From Alistipes sp. CAG:435 (lineage in GTDB: Bacteria; Bacteroidota; Bacteroidia; Bacteroidales; UBA932), in assembly GCA_000433355.1 (NCBI GenBank), contig FR893142.1, positions 4,772-68,771 of the forward strand: DNA of 64,000 nucleotides. The letters run 5' to 3'. This document shows, one piece after another, positions 3,751-42,064 of this stretch; positions within the stretch are counted from its first letter, which is position 1, and every line of letters starts with the position of its first letter. Position numbers and translations under genes: made by a program. A model generated the notes under the pieces. The model was given only the letters and a program-made list of their open reading frames with translations, searched no databases and was not told the DNA's origin.

Positions 3751-3773
3751 TTTGATTTGTTATTTGCTATTTG

Positions 3774-9035: not shown

Positions 9036-10115
9036 ATGAGAAAAAAGGAAACTGTTATGAATATATCAAAGAAAGCAACTTCATCTTTGCGTTGTACGGC
9101 CGCCGTGGCCATTCTTGCCTTGGCGTCATCCTGCGCGAAGGAAACCACAACCTACGAGAACGATGACGTGAAACTCTACCTGGACGCTTGGATGAGCGTG
9201 AACCATCCGGGAGTCCAGCCGACCGGCCTTGGAGTTTACATCATCGATGACCAGCCTGGCTCCGGAGAGGCTGTCACGGATGATGACTATTATTACTTCA
9301 TCCGCTACACGGCCACGGATCTGAACGGAAACATCAGCGGCACGTCCGAAGAGAAAGTGGCGCAGCAGACAGGAAGCTACACGAAAGGCAACTACTATGG
9401 TCCGACAGTGGTGATGGACTCTTACTATGCCACCCAGCCGGGTGTTCTGGAAGCCATCAAGGGCATGAAGGTCGGCGGAACAAGGACAGTGGTCGTGCCT
9501 GGATGGCTCAACTCAACCATATCATCATCAACCGGCGAGAAATACTACACTACCGCTGAGGAATTCTACAAGAACAAGAGCGGGAGCAACACAATCTACA
9601 CTCTTACCTTGACCGACAAGACCGACAACATCAACAAATGGGAGGTCGATTCGTTGGAAAGGTACACAGCTCGCATGATGAACGATGTTGACTCCACATT
9701 CTACGGGTACTACTACCAACAGCTCAAGGAGCCTACTGACACAACCACATTCCCGCGTGACACGACATTCTACATCAACTACATAGGGAGGCTTCTCAAC
9801 GGTCAGGTGTTCGACACCACAATCGAGGACACCGCCAAGTTCTACGGAATTTACTCCTCGTCAAAGACTTACAAGCCTCAAATGGTCAAGTTGAACGAGA
9901 CCTACACCGAAATCACTCTCGGAGGGTCAAGCAGTTCGGACGGAAGCACCACAATCGATGGATTCGCCTACTGCCTCTCAAAACTGAAATCCTACGAGAA
10001 AGGAATCTGCGCGTTCTACTCGGCTTTGGGCTACAAATACAGCGGCAGCGGAAACGTGATTCCAAAATTTGCCCCTTTGACTTTCGAGATCGAGATTGTT
10101 GACAAAGAAGAATAA
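9036..10115 (+). CDS. FKBP-type PPIase lipoprotein with two FKBP-like domains
   Basis: Lipobox LASSC. Repeated FKBP-like segments (GVYIIDDQPGSG ... GTRTVVVPGW and YINYIGRLLNGQVFDTT ... FEIEIV). An alternative start lies at 9057. Confidence 0.55.
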   Translation: MRKKETVMNISKKATSSLRCTAAVAILALASSCAKETTTYENDDVKLYLDAWMSVNHPGVQPTGLGVYIIDDQPGSGEAVTDDDYYYFIRYTATDLNGNISGTSEEKVAQQTGSYTKGNYYGPTVVMDSYYATQPGVLEAIKGMKVGGTRTVVVPGWLNSTISSSTGEKYYTTAEEFYKNKSGSNTIYTLTLTDKTDNINKWEVDSLERYTARMMNDVDSTFYGYYYQQLKEPTDTTTFPRDTTFYINYIGRLLNGQVFDTTIEDTAKFYGIYSSSKTYKPQMVKLNETYTEITLGGSSSSDGSTTIDGFAYCLSKLKSYEKGICAFYSALGYKYSGSGNVIPKFAPLTFEIEIVDKEE

Positions 10116-16923: not shown

Positions 16924-16943
16924 CCTATTCTTTAGTAACATTC

Positions 16944-17092
16944 AAAAAATAACCTGCATCATCTTAAGGAATCTTTTCGGTCTAGATCTCTTTTCTCATC
17001 AGTCATGTGCCACCGGCACACTCCTTCTTCAAAAAAAGATCTATCCTCGAAAATCTTCTCTTAATCTGAAGCAACTTATTTTTTTCATGTTA
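16944..17092. repeat. Copy A of a roughly 150-nt conserved intergenic element (second copy at 27627-27777)
   Basis: Alignable to 27627-27777. A 75-nt core (16974-17048, about 92% identical) contains the hairpin TGTGCC-ACC-GGCACA. Flanking conserved blocks are aaaaaataac and caacttatttttttcatg. Confidence 0.7.
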
Positions 17093-18415
17093 CTTAACGT
17101 CTGCCAGATGAATCTTAGTCGTCCTGATTCCATAGAAGCAGACGACAATGAAGCAGATAAACGGCAGGATAAACGAAGCGTTCACAGCCGGCAGGAAACC
17201 GATCGTGCCCTTGTCGATGATCCAAGCCTGGAGCGGAGGAAGCACAGAGCCACCCAGAATGGCCATAATGAGGCCGGCGGCACCGAACTTGGCGTCATCC
17301 CCGAGCCCTCCGAGGGCGATTCCGTAGATCGTCGGGAACATCAGCGACATAAACCCGCTGACAGCCACAAGGCAATAAAGCCCGAGCCTGTTCTGCAGGA
17401 ATATCACGCCGGCAGTGGCGATCATTCCTCCTATAGCGAAGATTGTCAAGAGTTTGGACGGTTTCAGATATTTCATCAGCCAAGTGCACAGGAAGCGGCA
17501 GGTCACGAACAGGATCATCGCCGCGATGTTGTACTTCTGCGAAAGCACCTCGGCCGCCTGCTCGTCCATTCCCTCGGCCATAAACACTCTTGTGCCGTAC
17601 TGGATGATGAATGTCCAGCACATAATCTGCACACCGACATAGAAGAACTGAGCGATCACTCCCTCCCAGTACCGAGGCCTGTGAAGCAGGCGGTTCAGAA
17701 CCGGGCCGATGTTCATCTCGTGATCATTGTCGGCGTTCTTAGGCATCTTCGCGAAAAGTATCAAGACGAACATCACGATGATGACAAGGCCGACAACCCA
17801 GTAAGGTCCCGTAAGCACATTGAGATCAGCCTGTTTCATCGCCTCGAAGCTCGCATCGTCCAGAAGCGCCCGCTCGGCCGTGCTGGCCGGATGCAGCCTC
17901 GCCTGGATGAAGTTCATCGCCACGTACATTCCCATCAGCGAGCCGATCGGATTGAAGCACTGAGCGAAGTTCAGACGACGGGTCGAAGTCTCCTCCGTTC
18001 CCATACTCAGGATGTACGGATTGCAGCTGGTTTCAAGGAAAGACAGACCGCAAGTCATTATGAAATATGCGATAAGGAAAAAGCCATAGACACCGACAGA
18101 TTTGGCCGGAAGGAACAGCAGAGCCCCGAGCGCATAGAGTCCAAGCCCGACAAGAACGCCAGCCTTGTAGGAGAATTTCCTGATGAACATCGCCGCCGGA
18201 AGAGCCATACAGAAATAGCCGCCGTAGAATGCCACCTGGACCAGAGAGCCCTGCGTCACACTCATTCTGAATATCTTGGAGAATGCCTTGACCATCGGGT
18301 TGGTGATGTCGTTGGCGAATCCCCACAGGGCGAAACAGGTCGTTATGAGAATAAAAGGCAGGACGTAGCTTACTCCGCCTGCCTTTAAGATTGAATCCTT
18401 CTCCTTCATATTCAA
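17090..18415 (-). CDS. fucP: L-fucose:H+ symporter permease (MFS)
   Basis: 441 aa MFS with the characteristic FucP N-terminus (WGFANDITNPMVKAF). It lies directly downstream of fucI. Confidence 0.8.
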   Translation of the reverse strand: MNMKEKDSILKAGGVSYVLPFILITTCFALWGFANDITNPMVKAFSKIFRMSVTQGSLVQVAFYGGYFCMALPAAMFIRKFSYKAGVLVGLGLYALGALLFLPAKSVGVYGFFLIAYFIMTCGLSFLETSCNPYILSMGTEETSTRRLNFAQCFNPIGSLMGMYVAMNFIQARLHPASTAERALLDDASFEAMKQADLNVLTGPYWVVGLVIIVMFVLILFAKMPKNADNDHEMNIGPVLNRLLHRPRYWEGVIAQFFYVGVQIMCWTFIIQYGTRVFMAEGMDEQAAEVLSQKYNIAAMILFVTCRFLCTWLMKYLKPSKLLTIFAIGGMIATAGVIFLQNRLGLYCLVAVSGFMSLMFPTIYGIALGGLGDDAKFGAAGLIMAILGGSVLPPLQAWIIDKGTIGFLPAVNASFILPFICFIVVCFYGIRTTKIHLADVK

Positions 18416-26280: not shown

Positions 26281-27027
26281 TTACTTCCAGACCCCGTCAC
26301 GGCACACTCTTGCAGCTTCGGCTTCAGGACGGCACCCCATCGAATAGATCGGAACCGAAGTGGCGATTCCGGAGGCGACCGGTGTCAATGCATCCATGAT
26401 CCGACGTTCCCAACGAACAGATGAGACAGCGCTGATAAAACCGGCGTAGGCGTAAATCCCGTTCAACCTTGAGATGCTGTTGAGCGGCGCCTGCCTGAGA
26501 CAGACAATGGCCTTGACCGGAACCCTCACATTACGATAGCAGGGAGTCTTCCCGCTCCATGGAGTGCCATAGACGAACAATTTCCCGTCTTCAAGTCTCA
26601 AGACCGGATTGTCATCATTGACCAACGTGGTTCCAGGAATATTCTCGAGCCACAGGCGGCTGTGGGTGCTTTTACCGGTTCCGCTGGGGCCAAGGAACAT
26701 CACTGCCTCTCCATCCAGAGAGACCACCGAGGAGTGCATCAGCAAGACTGAATGCGCGGGAGAGTTGTAGGAGAACATCATCCGCAGGAGCACGTCCATC
26801 ATGTATGTCACCTTGTAGGCTGTCATTCCCGGTTCCGGATAATAGTCTCCGACAGTGCTGTCGTTGGAAACCAACAACCTTCCCAAGGACGGACTGGATT
26901 CGGTGCTGACCTCGAACCATGTCCCTTCAGGACGGCGGTAAACCTTGAAGTACGGCTGTGAGTCTTTGACATCCATGATCAGGCCTTCCCCCTGCCCCCG
27001 CGTCGAAAGGTTCACTTTCAGGCGCAT
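26281..27027 (-). CDS. HPr kinase/phosphorylase C-terminal-domain-like P-loop protein
   Basis: FLGPSGTGKSTHSRLWLENIPGTTLVNDDNPVL closely parallels the HprK P-loop region (GxSGxGKSE...LvaDD). The start is uncertain: 27027, or MDVKD near 26976. It overlaps the upstream ORF. Confidence 0.55.
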   Translation of the reverse strand: MRLKVNLSTRGQGEGLIMDVKDSQPYFKVYRRPEGTWFEVSTESSPSLGRLLVSNDSTVGDYYPEPGMTAYKVTYMMDVLLRMMFSYNSPAHSVLLMHSSVVSLDGEAVMFLGPSGTGKSTHSRLWLENIPGTTLVNDDNPVLRLEDGKLFVYGTPWSGKTPCYRNVRVPVKAIVCLRQAPLNSISRLNGIYAYAGFISAVSSVRWERRIMDALTPVASGIATSVPIYSMGCRPEAEAARVCRDGVWK

Positions 27028-27343
27028 GGATGACCAGACGGAAAGTCACATCCGCCTCTTGTCCGATGAAGAACGGTTCAAGCATGGAAAGATCCAGCAT
27101 GTTGGCGTCAATGTCAGGGATGAGTTCTCCACGCCCCTGCACAAATGTCCTGAAAGGCACCTTGTCCCCGGCCCTTACCGGAAGAACCGGCAAGACATCA
27201 CCTGCCGCAGCCAGCGCTATCCGCTTCCGGACCGGTTCAGTGTACTCCATAGGGATCCATGGAGACCTCAGTTCAAGAGCGAACGCCACTTCGCCGACAC
27301 GGTAAACCCTGATTGTTGAAGTGGACATATCACTCGAGGACAC
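26927..27343 (-). CDS. Hypothetical protein between the PqqD-like and HprK-like genes
   Basis: 138 aa. Its start overlaps the PqqD-like stop by 14 nt and its end overlaps the HprK-like ORF by 50-100 nt in another frame. There is a faint resemblance to lasso B2 (FRLVIHAPESE versus the HAWVE motif), but no catalytic Cys in the expected place. Confidence 0.35.
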   Translation of the reverse strand: MSSSDMSTSTIRVYRVGEVAFALELRSPWIPMEYTEPVRKRIALAAAGDVLPVLPVRAGDKVPFRTFVQGRGELIPDIDANMLDLSMLEPFFIGQEADVTFRLVIHAPESEPFDAGAGGRPDHGCQRLTAVLQGLPPS

Positions 27344-27596
27344 CGTTTTCCTTCAACCGGGAGCACATCGCCTTGACATCAGACAGGGCCACCTCCGGAG
27401 AGACATCATACTTCCCGCACAAGAGGCTGACAAGCGACTCCTCCGTAAAGTCCGATGAGCCGACAGATTCCAACAGGTATGCAGCGGAATCATTCAACCT
27501 GATCAACTTGTTGAAATTCACAAAGTCACTTCCCTCCCCGGAAAGGACCTTCTCACCGCAAATCTCGCGGATGACAAATCCATTCTTCACTTTCAT
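27330..27596 (-). CDS. PqqD-family protein (RiPP recognition element-like peptide chaperone)
   Basis: 88 aa, matching the size and pattern of PqqD/RRE proteins (FVIREICGEKVLS ... LNDSAAYLLESV ... EESLVSLLCGKYDVSPEVALSDVKAMCSRLKENGVLE). Confidence 0.6.
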   Translation of the reverse strand: MKVKNGFVIREICGEKVLSGEGSDFVNFNKLIRLNDSAAYLLESVGSSDFTEESLVSLLCGKYDVSPEVALSDVKAMCSRLKENGVLE

Positions 27597-27626
27597 GTGG
27601 CAGCTTTCTTAAGGTCAGTAATCCTT

Positions 27627-27777
27627 AAAAAATAACTTGGTAATCTTTGATTGTCTTTTCGGTCCAGATGTCTTTTCTCATCAGTCATGTGCCACCGGCA
27701 CACTCCTTCTTCCAAAAGAAATCTATCCTCATAAAATCTGACACAAAATTTAGTTCAACTTATTTTTTTCATGCTTA
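27627..27777. repeat. Copy B of the roughly 150-nt conserved intergenic element
   Basis: Aligns with 16944-17092. Core 27656-27730 has the same TGTGCC-ACC-GGCACA hairpin. It lies in the divergent gap between the PqqD-like and S24 peptidase genes. Confidence 0.7.
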
Positions 27778-27855
27778 CTTAATGGCAAAGTCAACGATTT
27801 TTTCAATACTTTTGCAAAGAAACAAGTCAATGACACGATGCTATAAAGGCTCAAA

Positions 27856-30041: not shown

Positions 30042-30111
30042 GAAGCAGTTTTGAGTTGTTTAAAATGTTCTTTGAGGTGAAAAACTTCAAACAAACAATT
30101 CAAAACAGCTC

Positions 30112-31104
30112 CTAAAGGTTTACATTGTCTTTCTTCCAGTCCTCTACCGGAGGAACGATGCCAAGGGCGATGATCTCCTCACGCATCTTGCAAAGGTGCT
30201 CGTAAGACTTCTGGAGGTCAGCCATCTCGACTTCAGTTCCCTGAGGCTCGGTGAAGTGAACACCGGTGGCGTCGATCGTGGTAGGCATAGCCATCATCAC
30301 GTTCTTGAAGCCGCACTTGTCGCAGTTGACATAGCAACCAGCAGGCCAGGTGAACGGAGTTCCGCCCATAGCGCCCTCGATCATCTTGACAGCCTGGTAG
30401 GCAGGGCTCTGGAATGAAGAACGTCCACGGAGCTTGATGATGTTGGAGCCACCCTGGATGGTGTCGTGCTTGATCTCGGCCCAACGCTCCTCGGAGATGT
30501 TGTACTCGGAGAGAGGCTTGCCGTCAACCTTTGCCTTTGACGCGAAGACAGCCATCTGCTCGCCGTGACCGCCGTAGGTATAGCAATCGGTAACCTTGTA
30601 CTGCGGAACACCGCAAGCCTTCGAGATCTGCTCCTGAAGACGTGTGGAGTCAAGAGCCGCGAGAGAGGTGAGCTGGTTAGGCTTGAGGCCTGAGTGGATG
30701 AGGGCGGTGAGAGCCGTCACATCGGCCGGGTTGAAGATAACCACAACGTGGTTGACATCAGGGCAGTACTCCTTGATGTAGTCACCGAACTGAGCGGCGA
30801 TCTGGCAGTTGCCCTTGAGAAGATCCTCGCGGGTCATACCGTCCTTACGTGGAGCACCGCCGGAAGAGATGATGAACTTGGCGCCTGTGAAAGCCTCCTT
30901 AGGATCGGTTGTCCAAGTTACGTTGGCACCTGGGAAAGCACAGTGGTACATTTCCTCGGCTACACCGTGGACAGCCGGTTCGATGATGTCATAGAGACAG
31001 ATGTTAGGAGTAAGACCGAGCATAAGGGCGGTCTGAGCCATGTTGGAGCCGATCGCACCGCCGGCACCGACGATGAGCAGCTTCTCGTTTGTCAAAAATC
31101 CCAT
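30112..31104 (-). CDS. mdh: Malate dehydrogenase (LDH-like, Bacteroidetes type)
   Basis: 330 aa with LLIVGAGGAIGSNMAQ Rossmann N-terminus and conserved MDH blocks. Confidence 0.8.
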   Translation of the reverse strand: MGFLTNEKLLIVGAGGAIGSNMAQTALMLGLTPNICLYDIIEPAVHGVAEEMYHCAFPGANVTWTTDPKEAFTGAKFIISSGGAPRKDGMTREDLLKGNCQIAAQFGDYIKEYCPDVNHVVVIFNPADVTALTALIHSGLKPNQLTSLAALDSTRLQEQISKACGVPQYKVTDCYTYGGHGEQMAVFASKAKVDGKPLSEYNISEERWAEIKHDTIQGGSNIIKLRGRSSFQSPAYQAVKMIEGAMGGTPFTWPAGCYVNCDKCGFKNVMMAMPTTIDATGVHFTEPQGTEVEMADLQKSYEHLCKMREEIIALGIVPPVEDWKKDNVNL

Positions 31105-34282: not shown

Positions 34283-34356
34283 CATCCGGTCACCAAGAAG
34301 CTGTTTTCAAACAAATCAAGACAACTTCTTAGCTGAAAGCCACTCCAGGCGGCGGA

Positions 34357-41706: not shown

Positions 41707-41762
41707 GATCGCTTTTGGCATATCATCGCCTTACAATTCGTGATTCCATACTTAGAAGGGGT

Positions 41763-41831
41763 GGCCAGAAAAAAGGCAAAAGCCAAATTTTGCACGGTGG
41801 ACCAAAATTTGGCTTTTGATTTTTCTGGCCC
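41763..41831. other. Long imperfect hairpin (about 30-bp stem) downstream of tsaE
   Basis: Left arm ggccagaaaaaaggcaaaagccaaattttg, loop cacggtggacc, right arm aaaattttggcttttgatttttctggcc. Confidence 0.55.
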
Positions 41832-42036
41832 TGGGTATCTGATAATGTGGGTGATTCGTCACCAAGTCGCTTCGGCAGGTTCTGCAACCACGAGACTTAC
41901 GATTATTAAACACCTTAAAATAAGAGAGATACAATCCTAAAAAAACACGGAACTTGGAGCGGAGCGACCGAAGGGGTCCGGGGAATCCCTTCCCCGTGCC
42001 CCTCTGGGGCTGTCACGTAGTGACTGGAGGTTGATG

Positions 42037-42064
42037 AGACTTTCGGGTAATTACCCGAAAGTCT
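42037..42064. other. Perfect 28-nt palindrome overlapping the comM stop codon
   Basis: agactttcgggtaattacccgaaagtct, a 13-bp stem with a 2-nt loop. The right arm encodes the last comM codons ETFG* and no U-tract follows. Confidence 0.6.

Follow-up and report, generated by a model that had tools for sequence, protein, structure and literature searches.

The question raised by this locus is why two intergenic tracts that lie between different genes should resemble each other from end to end. Both occur in a stretch of 64,000 nucleotides, here called the window (forward strand of contig FR893142.1, positions 4,772 to 68,771), from the assembly of Alistipes sp. CAG:435, an organism now placed in Candidatus Cryptobacteroides. 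The first-pass annotation had located the tracts at 16944-17092 and 27627-27777 and had offered three readings: an autonomous small-RNA (sRNA) gene, a repeat resembling a MITE (miniature inverted-repeat transposable element), or a small-peptide gene. Only the MITE reading stood up. With a probability of roughly 0.92, the two tracts are members of a dispersed, noncoding MITE family with a modal length of 159 bp. The family is present in Alistipes sp. CAG:435 and related uncultured Bacteroidales of the human gut; it is previously undescribed, a literature search having returned no description of it, and it is ordinary in kind.

The repeat and its alignment over the full length of the tracts were reproduced. 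A gapless repeat finder gave 82% identity over 109 nt, the blocks aaaaaataac and caacttattttttt were present in both tracts as reported, and both also contained the TGTGCC-ACC-GGCACA hairpin and the plus-strand mini open reading frame (ORF) MCHRHTPSSK.... An identical 42-nt block, TCTTTTCTCATCAGTCATGTGCCACCGGCACACTCCTTCTTC, occurred exactly twice in the window, once per tract. The limits had been drawn too narrowly, the true unit being wider at both sites (Table 1). The gene contexts were as first described: copy A lies between the convergent comEC and fucP genes and includes the fucP stop codon, and copy B lies between the divergent PqqD-like and S24-like peptidase genes. These are the only two full copies in the window and the sole long dispersed repeat of their kind in the 64 kb. 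They fall in different subfamilies, and the family profile matched them with E values of 1e-48 and 2e-38.

To determine the extent of the family, we scanned species-representative genomes, one genome per species, with an exact 20-mer from the element centre, GTCATGTGCCACCGGCACAC. At least 114 stretches matched, nearly all of them from uncultured Alistipes/Bacteroidales and with many copies per assembly: at least about 33 loci in UMGS648, at least about 20 in the CAVERO01 bin, and at least about 10-11 each in UMGS409, Alistipes sp. CAG:514 and one Hadza metagenome-assembled genome (MAG). A metagenome scan for the centre added at least 120 further stretches. The first-pass annotation had named two copies only, with none in relatives, as the result that would speak against its proposal, and the count clearly shows otherwise. 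No match to the MITE was found in plasmid and phage collections. In IMG/VR, two predicted viral contigs (L255 and L256) carried the MITE, one of them as a full copy with a TAT/TAT duplication; these copies may mark a route of spread or may be host DNA misclassified as viral.

Among the matches listed in the genome scan, none from outside the Bacteroidales relatives truly belonged to the family. The 20-mer also matched a conserved, GC-rich palindromic locus in several Solirubrobacteraceae MAGs (L015, L044, L054, L055, L080 and L106) and one other actinobacterial contig (L087), where the remaining sequence was unrelated, so that these matches were set aside as chance or convergent. About 20 contigs with the Bacteroidales MITE, many of them ending in it, were assigned to a MAG labelled as a Candidatus Methanomethylophilaceae archaeon (CAVERO01; L017, L032, L040, L048 and others), and one MITE-bearing contig was assigned to a Lachnospiraceae-labelled MAG (L094). 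Both bins probably contain mis-binned Bacteroidales contigs. Contigs were also seen to break within the MITE or to fuse different MITE copies.

The anatomy of the element was derived from an alignment of 93 copies with their flanks, several statistics being taken from a set of 80 copies. Directly outside GTAA...TTAC, conservation dropped to background from values of at least 90%, and 81 of the 93 copies measured 157-161 bp. The ends are inverted repeats, of which one reads GTAAC-N4-AAAAAATAA(C/G)(C/T)TG and the other TTATTTTTT-N4-GTTAC. The end positions GTAA and AAAAAATAA were at least 90% conserved in the 80 copies, and the terminal pairs were Watson-Crick in 68-78 of them. The arms pair over nearly their full length, with 85% of the cells in the 61-pair hairpin of copy A being Watson-Crick, and only the central ~42 nt, which carry an apex hairpin of 6-7 bp, are asymmetric. 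This centre was invariant or nearly so in all 80 copies, across subfamilies with markedly different arms, although part of the invariance reflects ascertainment, as 20 nt of the centre served as the search pattern. Conservation reached about 10 nt past the pattern on each side, and copies found by profile without the exact pattern differed at 1-4 central positions. At one orthologous site (L149, L158, L170, L204, L215 and L242), a 12-nt unit, GACTGATGAGAA, was repeated two to four times just 3' of the apex hairpin; its copy number differed among samples, making it a small variable-number repeat within the MITE.

The two strands of the element are not equivalent. We defined the M orientation as the strand with the more stable RNA or single-stranded DNA hairpin, which is the minus strand of the window for both copies. 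All 85 unique copies folded better on the M strand (mean, -54.4 versus -35.9 kcal/mol). Copy A forms one long hairpin of -71.7 kcal/mol on the minus strand versus -44.9 on the plus strand, and the hairpin of copy B is weaker than that of copy A. With the invariant pair set aside, G-U cells outnumbered A-C cells by 157 to 63, and of 32 consensus pairs, 14 showed compensatory changes between subfamilies in RNAalifold. The strand asymmetry is suggestive of a single-stranded form in which one strand is preferred, but it could alternatively have been inherited from master copies.

The flanks of the copies carry the mark of insertion. The adjoining trinucleotides were identical in 64 of 93 copies (TTA, 30; TAA, 27; TAT, 3; ATA, 2; AAA, 1; TCA, 1), whereas other duplication lengths fitted poorly (2 bp in 5/93 and 4 bp in 2/93). 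TTA and TAA flanks were concordant in 57 cases versus 4 (Fisher p = 1e-12), and the extended target is T-TWA-A. The decisive evidence of mobility is the occurrence of exact empty sites. At the comEC/fucP junction, the conspecific strains L131-L134 carry the empty allele CCTATTCTTTAACGTCTGCC with a single TTA, whereas the window carries CCTATTCTTTA, the 159-bp MITE and then TTAACGTC (right flank also given as TTAACGTCTGCC). The empty allele is the commoner one, being found in 465 data blocks versus 29 with the MITE. Conversely, window positions 3770-3772, which read TTG here, are an empty site that is occupied by a full TTA-flanked copy in UMGS648 (L108), and there the insertion lies between two tandem minus-strand genes just 23 nt apart. 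Additionally, 4 of 10 conspecific strains carry an internally deleted MITE of 78 bp, belonging to the subfamily of copy A, at the TTA that adjoins copy B. Other shortened forms of about 30, 65 and 110 bp, all without the centre, occur elsewhere. Apart from the identification of a partner transposase, the family displays every structural and behavioural hallmark of a MITE. A DDE-type transposase encoded elsewhere would be expected to act in trans by binding the MITE ends, making 3-nt staggered cuts at T-TWA-A and pasting the element in, with the consequence that the flanking TTA or TAA would be duplicated.

The insertion that gave rise to copy A is recent and differs between strains; it struck the penultimate codon of fucP, which encodes a fucose permease of the MFS type (exact match, CDD17455.1); its convergent neighbour comEC encodes a Competence-domain protein. 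The MITE inserted with duplication of TTA; the FucP terminal residue was lost and a new stop codon was donated by the element. Thus, the product ends in ...ADVK* in the window, while in conspecifics without the MITE it ends in ...ADVKE* and uses its own TAG. The location of the fucP stop codon within the repeat had been noted correctly by the first-pass annotation.

Copy B is the older of the two insertions. All 10 conspecific strains read carry it, and the related species L257-L264 lack it in their orthologous PqqD-S24 spacer. Those MITE-less relatives retain TTTG-N21-TA(tc/ac/ta)TTTG, ending 24-30 nt before the ATG of the PqqD-like gene (exact protein match in the window strain, CDD17486.1), in line with the Bacteroidetes promoter consensus TTTG / TAnnTTTG (PMC7366714). 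In the window, the -7 box of this promoter aims into the M 5' end of copy B, separated from it by 4 nt plus the 3-nt duplication, and the PqqD ATG lies 21 nt past the M 3' end. As judged from this arrangement, copy B appears to have inserted between the conserved -7 box and the ATG of the PqqD-like operon, right where transcription starts. With the promoter box kept beside the element, the M strand of copy B most likely forms part of the transcript, as a structured 5' leader about 185 nt long. In folds of this leader, the AUG region was mostly unpaired in the real and in the flipped orientation alike.

Table 1. Positions of the MITE copies, their parts and associated features (window coordinates unless another locus is named; TSD, target-site duplication; M, strand with the more stable hairpin)
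Feature	Position	Strand	Basis or remark
MITE copy A, 159 bp, subfamily S1	16935..17093	- (M)	Family alignment, sharp conservation boundaries
Copy A left TSD, TTA	16932..16934	.	Empty-site comparison
Copy A right TSD, TTA	17094..17096	.	Empty-site comparison
Copy A left terminal inverted repeat, GTAACATTCAAAAAATAACCTGC	16935..16957	+	Reverse complement of 17071-17093 save mismatches
Copy A right terminal inverted repeat, GCAACTTATTTTTTTCATGTTAC	17071..17093	+	Alignment
Copy A asymmetric, nearly invariant centre	16989..17030	.	Apex hairpin TGTGCC-ACC-GGCACA at 17006-17020
fucP stop codon, TAA	17090..17092	-	From MITE terminal GTTAC
MITE copy B, 161 bp, subfamily other than that of copy A	27618..27778	- (M)	Alignment, profile match
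Copy B left flank TCA, decayed TSD copy	27615..27617	.	One mismatch to TTA
Copy B right flank TTA, other TSD copy	27779..27781	.	Flank comparison
Copy B invariant centre	27671..27712	.	Apex hairpin at 27688-27702
Host -7 promoter box, PqqD-like operon	27786..27793	-	TGACTTTG here; TAACTTTG in 7/10 strains
PqqD-like gene	27330..27596	-	Pfam PF05402, E = 5e-12
78-bp mini-MITE, absent from window	L002, L005, L006, L009 at about 9773-9850		Orthologous to window 27779-27781
Second-family mini copy, 71 bp	30042-30112		Between ABC-transporter and malate/lactate dehydrogenase genes
Second-family partial match	34308-34328

The position of copy B reflects a pattern seen across the family, for which gene context was assigned with simple ORF calls, so that the orientation counts are approximate. 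None of 80 copies lay inside an ORF. Among 74 copies, 30 were flanked by tandem, 25 by divergent and 19 by convergent genes, and 12 distances to the 3' end of a flanking gene were 0 or negative. In 35 copies the ATG of an ORF of at least 80 codons lay no more than 60 nt from the M 3' end, whereas only 9 copies had one that close to the opposite end (p = 1e-4). A 30-nt limit gave 22 versus 4 ORF starts, with distances peaking at 13-19 nt. The bias toward gene starts at the M 3' end appeared in all four subfamilies, and 31 additional deduplicated metagenome copies gave a ratio of 11 to 3. For genes that point their 3' ends at the element, orientation was not biased (19 versus 14), and a replication-linked insertion bias was accordingly rejected as the cause of the skew.

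Similarly, host promoters were unevenly placed. In 108 deduplicated copies, a perfect TAnnTTTG located 4-14 nt upstream pointed into the M 5' end in 12 cases but into the opposite end in a single one (p = 0.003), and in 10 of these 12 copies a gene began no more than 60 nt beyond the element. Boxes with up to one mismatch numbered 24 and 11, with a gene beyond the element in 16/24 versus 1/11. Inside the element, neither a perfect TAnnTTTG at a fixed position nor TTTG-N18-22-TAnnTTTG was found in either orientation, and a sigma-70 scan gave nothing useful. The terminal TTATTTTTT(G) was considered as a promoter, as it matches the box at 7 of 8 positions and its spacing from start codons is plausible; however, both ends have it, and it cannot alone explain the orientation bias.

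Many copies, including copy B, thus lie just downstream of a host promoter and are probably transcribed as leaders. The orientation pattern points to selection on the expression effect of the transcribed hairpin or to transcription-coupled insertion. Under the former, most insertions that survive in 5' leaders would be those oriented so as to form the compact, more stable hairpin; under the latter, the orientation of insertion would itself be coupled to transcription. A bolder proposal, to which we give only tentative credence, is that the element is a transposon-borne cis-regulatory RNA module operating through its invariant asymmetric centre and strand-specific hairpin. Such a module would insert at transcription start sites in one orientation, or survive only there, and could act as a 5'-terminal stem-loop, an attenuator or a processing site, in which case the expression of dozens of unrelated gut Bacteroidales genes would have been reset. 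In a variant of this proposal, a single-stranded hairpin intermediate would couple insertion orientation to transcription.

The same structural features were weighed against explanations other than transposition. As an autonomous sRNA gene, each copy would have a promoter and a terminator of its own and yield a structured RNA about 160 nt long; the gene would have been spread by duplication and kept by selection on the RNA. Consistent with this are the hairpin z-scores on the minus strand (-11 for copy A and -3.6 for copy B), the greater stability of the same strand in every copy, the excess of G-U over A-C cells, the compensatory changes, the near-invariant centre and a U-run after the hairpin. 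However, Rfam, which the first-pass annotation had suggested consulting, returned no family, whether at the gathering threshold for the whole window or at E values up to 10 for the two copies, apart from a tRNA elsewhere and chance hits. No Bacteroidetes TTTG/TAnnTTTG promoter is fixed within the element, copy A sits in the overlapping ends of convergent genes with no room for one, and the transcribed copies appear to rely on host promoters. Furthermore, the inverted ends, the 3-bp duplication and the empty sites account for the spread without an RNA function, and the strand asymmetry can descend from a few master copies. An sRNA gene is therefore unlikely. Two further RNA candidates were rejected: a hammerhead ribozyme on the minus strand (CUGAUGAG...CGAAA), in which the 15 nt between the motifs cannot form stem II and for which there was no model hit, and a C/D-box-like DdR1 hit (E = 0.046), which belongs to a eukaryotic family and matched on UGAUGA/CUGA words only, as expected by chance. 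Even less probable is a small-peptide gene, encoded either by MCHRHTPSSK... on the plus strand or by MTDEKR... on the minus strand. Both ORFs are open in all subfamilies, AAGGAG lies 14 nt upstream of the minus-strand ORF, and the plus-strand ORF has a mild excess of third-position variation (67/52/90). In contrast, variation in the minus-strand ORF is flat across codon positions (132/141/130), and Shine-Dalgarno sites are rarely used in Bacteroidetes. The ends of the ORFs vary widely, from stops at 13-20 codons to frames of more than 29 codons that run out of the element; each ATG falls within the apex stem or adjoins it; and copies that lack the centre persist. Recent copying and hairpin constraints account for the conservation, and both mini-ORFs, which give no clear coding signal, are best treated as probable by-products.

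A palindrome selected by the host, either as a bidirectional terminator or as a REP/BIME-like sequence, rather than a transposon, was judged very improbable, at about the level of the peptide gene or slightly above it. The hairpin lies between an A-run and a T-run and is followed by a T-run on both strands, copy A separates convergent genes as do 19 of the 74 copies, and 12 of the distances to a gene's 3' end are 0 or negative. However, the defined ends and the variable 3-bp duplication (ATA/ATA, AAA/AAA and TAT/TAT in addition to the common forms) fit insertion at a staggered cut, one insertion lies within the last codons of a coding sequence, a terminator would have no role in the 25 copies between divergent genes, and many copies lie in putative 5' leaders. 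REPs, which are mobilised by RAYTs, are palindromes of 20-40 nt without target duplication, a definition that does not cover a 159-bp element with a 3-bp duplication. The first-pass annotation was right to argue against a shared promoter or terminator role. Finally, a segmental duplication confined to the 10-kb region would agree with the presence of only two full copies in the window, but it is refuted by a copy number that runs into the hundreds, across many genomes and at loci unrelated to one another; the two window copies also belong to different subfamilies.

Several observations nevertheless weigh against the MITE interpretation. The centre rather than the ends is the most conserved part of the element, in part through ascertainment, and yet copies with a deleted centre exist, so it may not be required for persistence. 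The M hairpin with its U-run resembles an intrinsic terminator, yet this is the orientation tolerated in 5' leaders. In addition to being approximate, the orientation statistics come from copies that are partly dependent, given the common ancestry of subfamilies and a few orthologous sites. About 1.8 Mb of flanking DNA contained no autonomous element with matching ends. We looked for paired ends 0.2-4 kb apart, for repeated long ORFs, for solitary ends with mismatches tolerated and, in metagenomes, for the centre followed by non-MITE sequence, and none of these searches returned a transposase; likewise, no ORF with the Y-2-R-3-E-6-K signature was found in a DDE screen of the collected loci.

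What the partner searches did yield was an IS110-family insertion, a segment of about 1.65 kb, MITE copies shortened by truncation or internal deletion, and other small repeats. The IS110-family element (L061, 2150-3760) is inserted in the conserved MITE centre at CTCTTT^TCTCATCAG and encodes a protein of 359 aa with matches to Pfam DEDD_Tnp_IS110 and Transposase_20. Repeats are known targets of IS110 elements, and the MITE centre may be the specific target of this one. Two ORFs, of 256 and 152 aa, lie in the 1.65-kb segment (L202, 1550-3500; also L166, L189, L197, L199, L239 and L240). The flank plus the MITE 5' half up to ...ATGACTGATGAG is present as a direct duplication at its borders, and the segment is joined to two different MITE copies at an identical central position; recombination in the MITE centre may be the way in which such an element integrates. 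A second MITE family, with ends GAAGCTGTTTTGAATTGTTTG...CAAACAATTCAAAACAGCTTC, forms of 71 to about 356 bp and 3-bp TTA/TAA duplications, is often inserted beside or into the first (L014, L034, L059, L071, L079, L082, L119, L121 and others) and is represented in the window as well. At L101 1-200, a MITE copy is interrupted by a third short palindromic repeat, GAATCCACTTGAAAAAGT...ACTTTTTCAAGTGGACTC, which is about 100 nt long and recurs in other loci of the same genome (L077, L057, L027, L124 and L085).

Other features of the window were observed in passing. The S24-like and PqqD-like divergent genes have back-to-back Bacteroidetes promoters, the one on the plus strand being at 27807-27814; the S24 -7 box, TACTTTTG, overlaps the PqqD -33 TTTG on the opposite strand, and this layout is kept in relatives. 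The gene that follows PqqD is split into overlapping ORFs of 138 and 248 aa in the window (26281-27343), while most strains have a single 348-aa ORF (Pfam ScmC), and the next gene, a nucleotidyltransferase (NTP_transf_5, 375 aa in L001), is missing in the window, L003 and L010. Decay of the PqqD-linked cluster may be under way in the window strain. At 41708-42050, about 340 nt of intergenic sequence are absent from the UMGS648 locus L056, which is otherwise 94-97% identical; this sequence contains a long A/T-flanked hairpin, GGCCAGAAAAAAGGCAAAAGCCAAATTTTG..., and has no obvious TWA duplication.

The closest parallels to the family are the Tourist-like MITEs of the IS5 superfamily and PIF-Harbinger group (IS1031 type), which duplicate 3 bp of the form TNA/TWA. 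A variable 3-bp duplication with a preference for TWA is the product of IS5-superfamily/Harbinger-type DDE transposases, and from the TWA duplication we infer that a transposase of this type mobilises the family. Like these MITEs, the elements are small, noncoding and present in many copies, have inverted ends and a 3-bp duplication that is almost always TTA or TAA, and prefer AT-rich sites near genes. In contrast, Tourist-like/IS5 families typically start with GG or GA, while the termini here start with GTAA, and the present family combines an almost complete palindrome with a centre that is asymmetric and conserved. In the flanking loci searched, neither a related transposase nor a full-length IS5/Harbinger-type element was found.

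The Correia elements (CREE/NEMIS) of Neisseria are similar in other respects. They are about 100-160 bp long, form a long hairpin, lie between genes, are often cotranscribed as 5' or 3' untranslated regions and can change expression, and they have subfamilies and internally deleted forms. The family resembles them in length, inverted ends, hairpin, intergenic sites, subfamilies, internal deletions and, probably, cotranscription with adjacent genes. However, Correia elements duplicate TA and not TWA, their sequence is dissimilar and they belong to another phylum; their promoter, IHF-site and RNase III effects have been shown experimentally. The ERIC/IRU repeats of enterobacteria are imperfect palindromes of about 127 bp that occur in transcribed intergenic regions in either orientation and with indel variants. 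Their palindromic form, intergenic location and shorter and longer variants recall the Cryptobacteroides family, although the taxon and sequence are different and the mobility and target duplication of ERIC are much less clear. Within the same order, Bacteroidales, MITEs have been reported from Porphyromonas gingivalis as small nonautonomous elements that cause misassembly (PMC2575886, PMC5771137). What goes beyond the ordinary in the present family is the very conserved asymmetric centre together with the promoter-proximal orientation bias.

These findings matter for the way in which the genomes of Candidatus Cryptobacteroides ('Alistipes sp. CAG') are put together and read. The members of this group are abundant, uncultured bacteria of the human gut that are known almost solely from metagenome assemblies, and a repeat that occurs tens of times per genome causes their contigs to break or to be joined wrongly and rewrites gene ends, as at the fucP stop codon. 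Its position between promoters and start codons means that it bears on assembly, annotation and regulatory inference alike, while sites that are filled in some strains and empty in others of one species provide cheap strain markers. If the orientation bias truly reflects an effect of the hairpin, the family would show how a long 5'-terminal stem-loop affects expression in Bacteroidetes, and a portable leader for genetic tools might then be possible.

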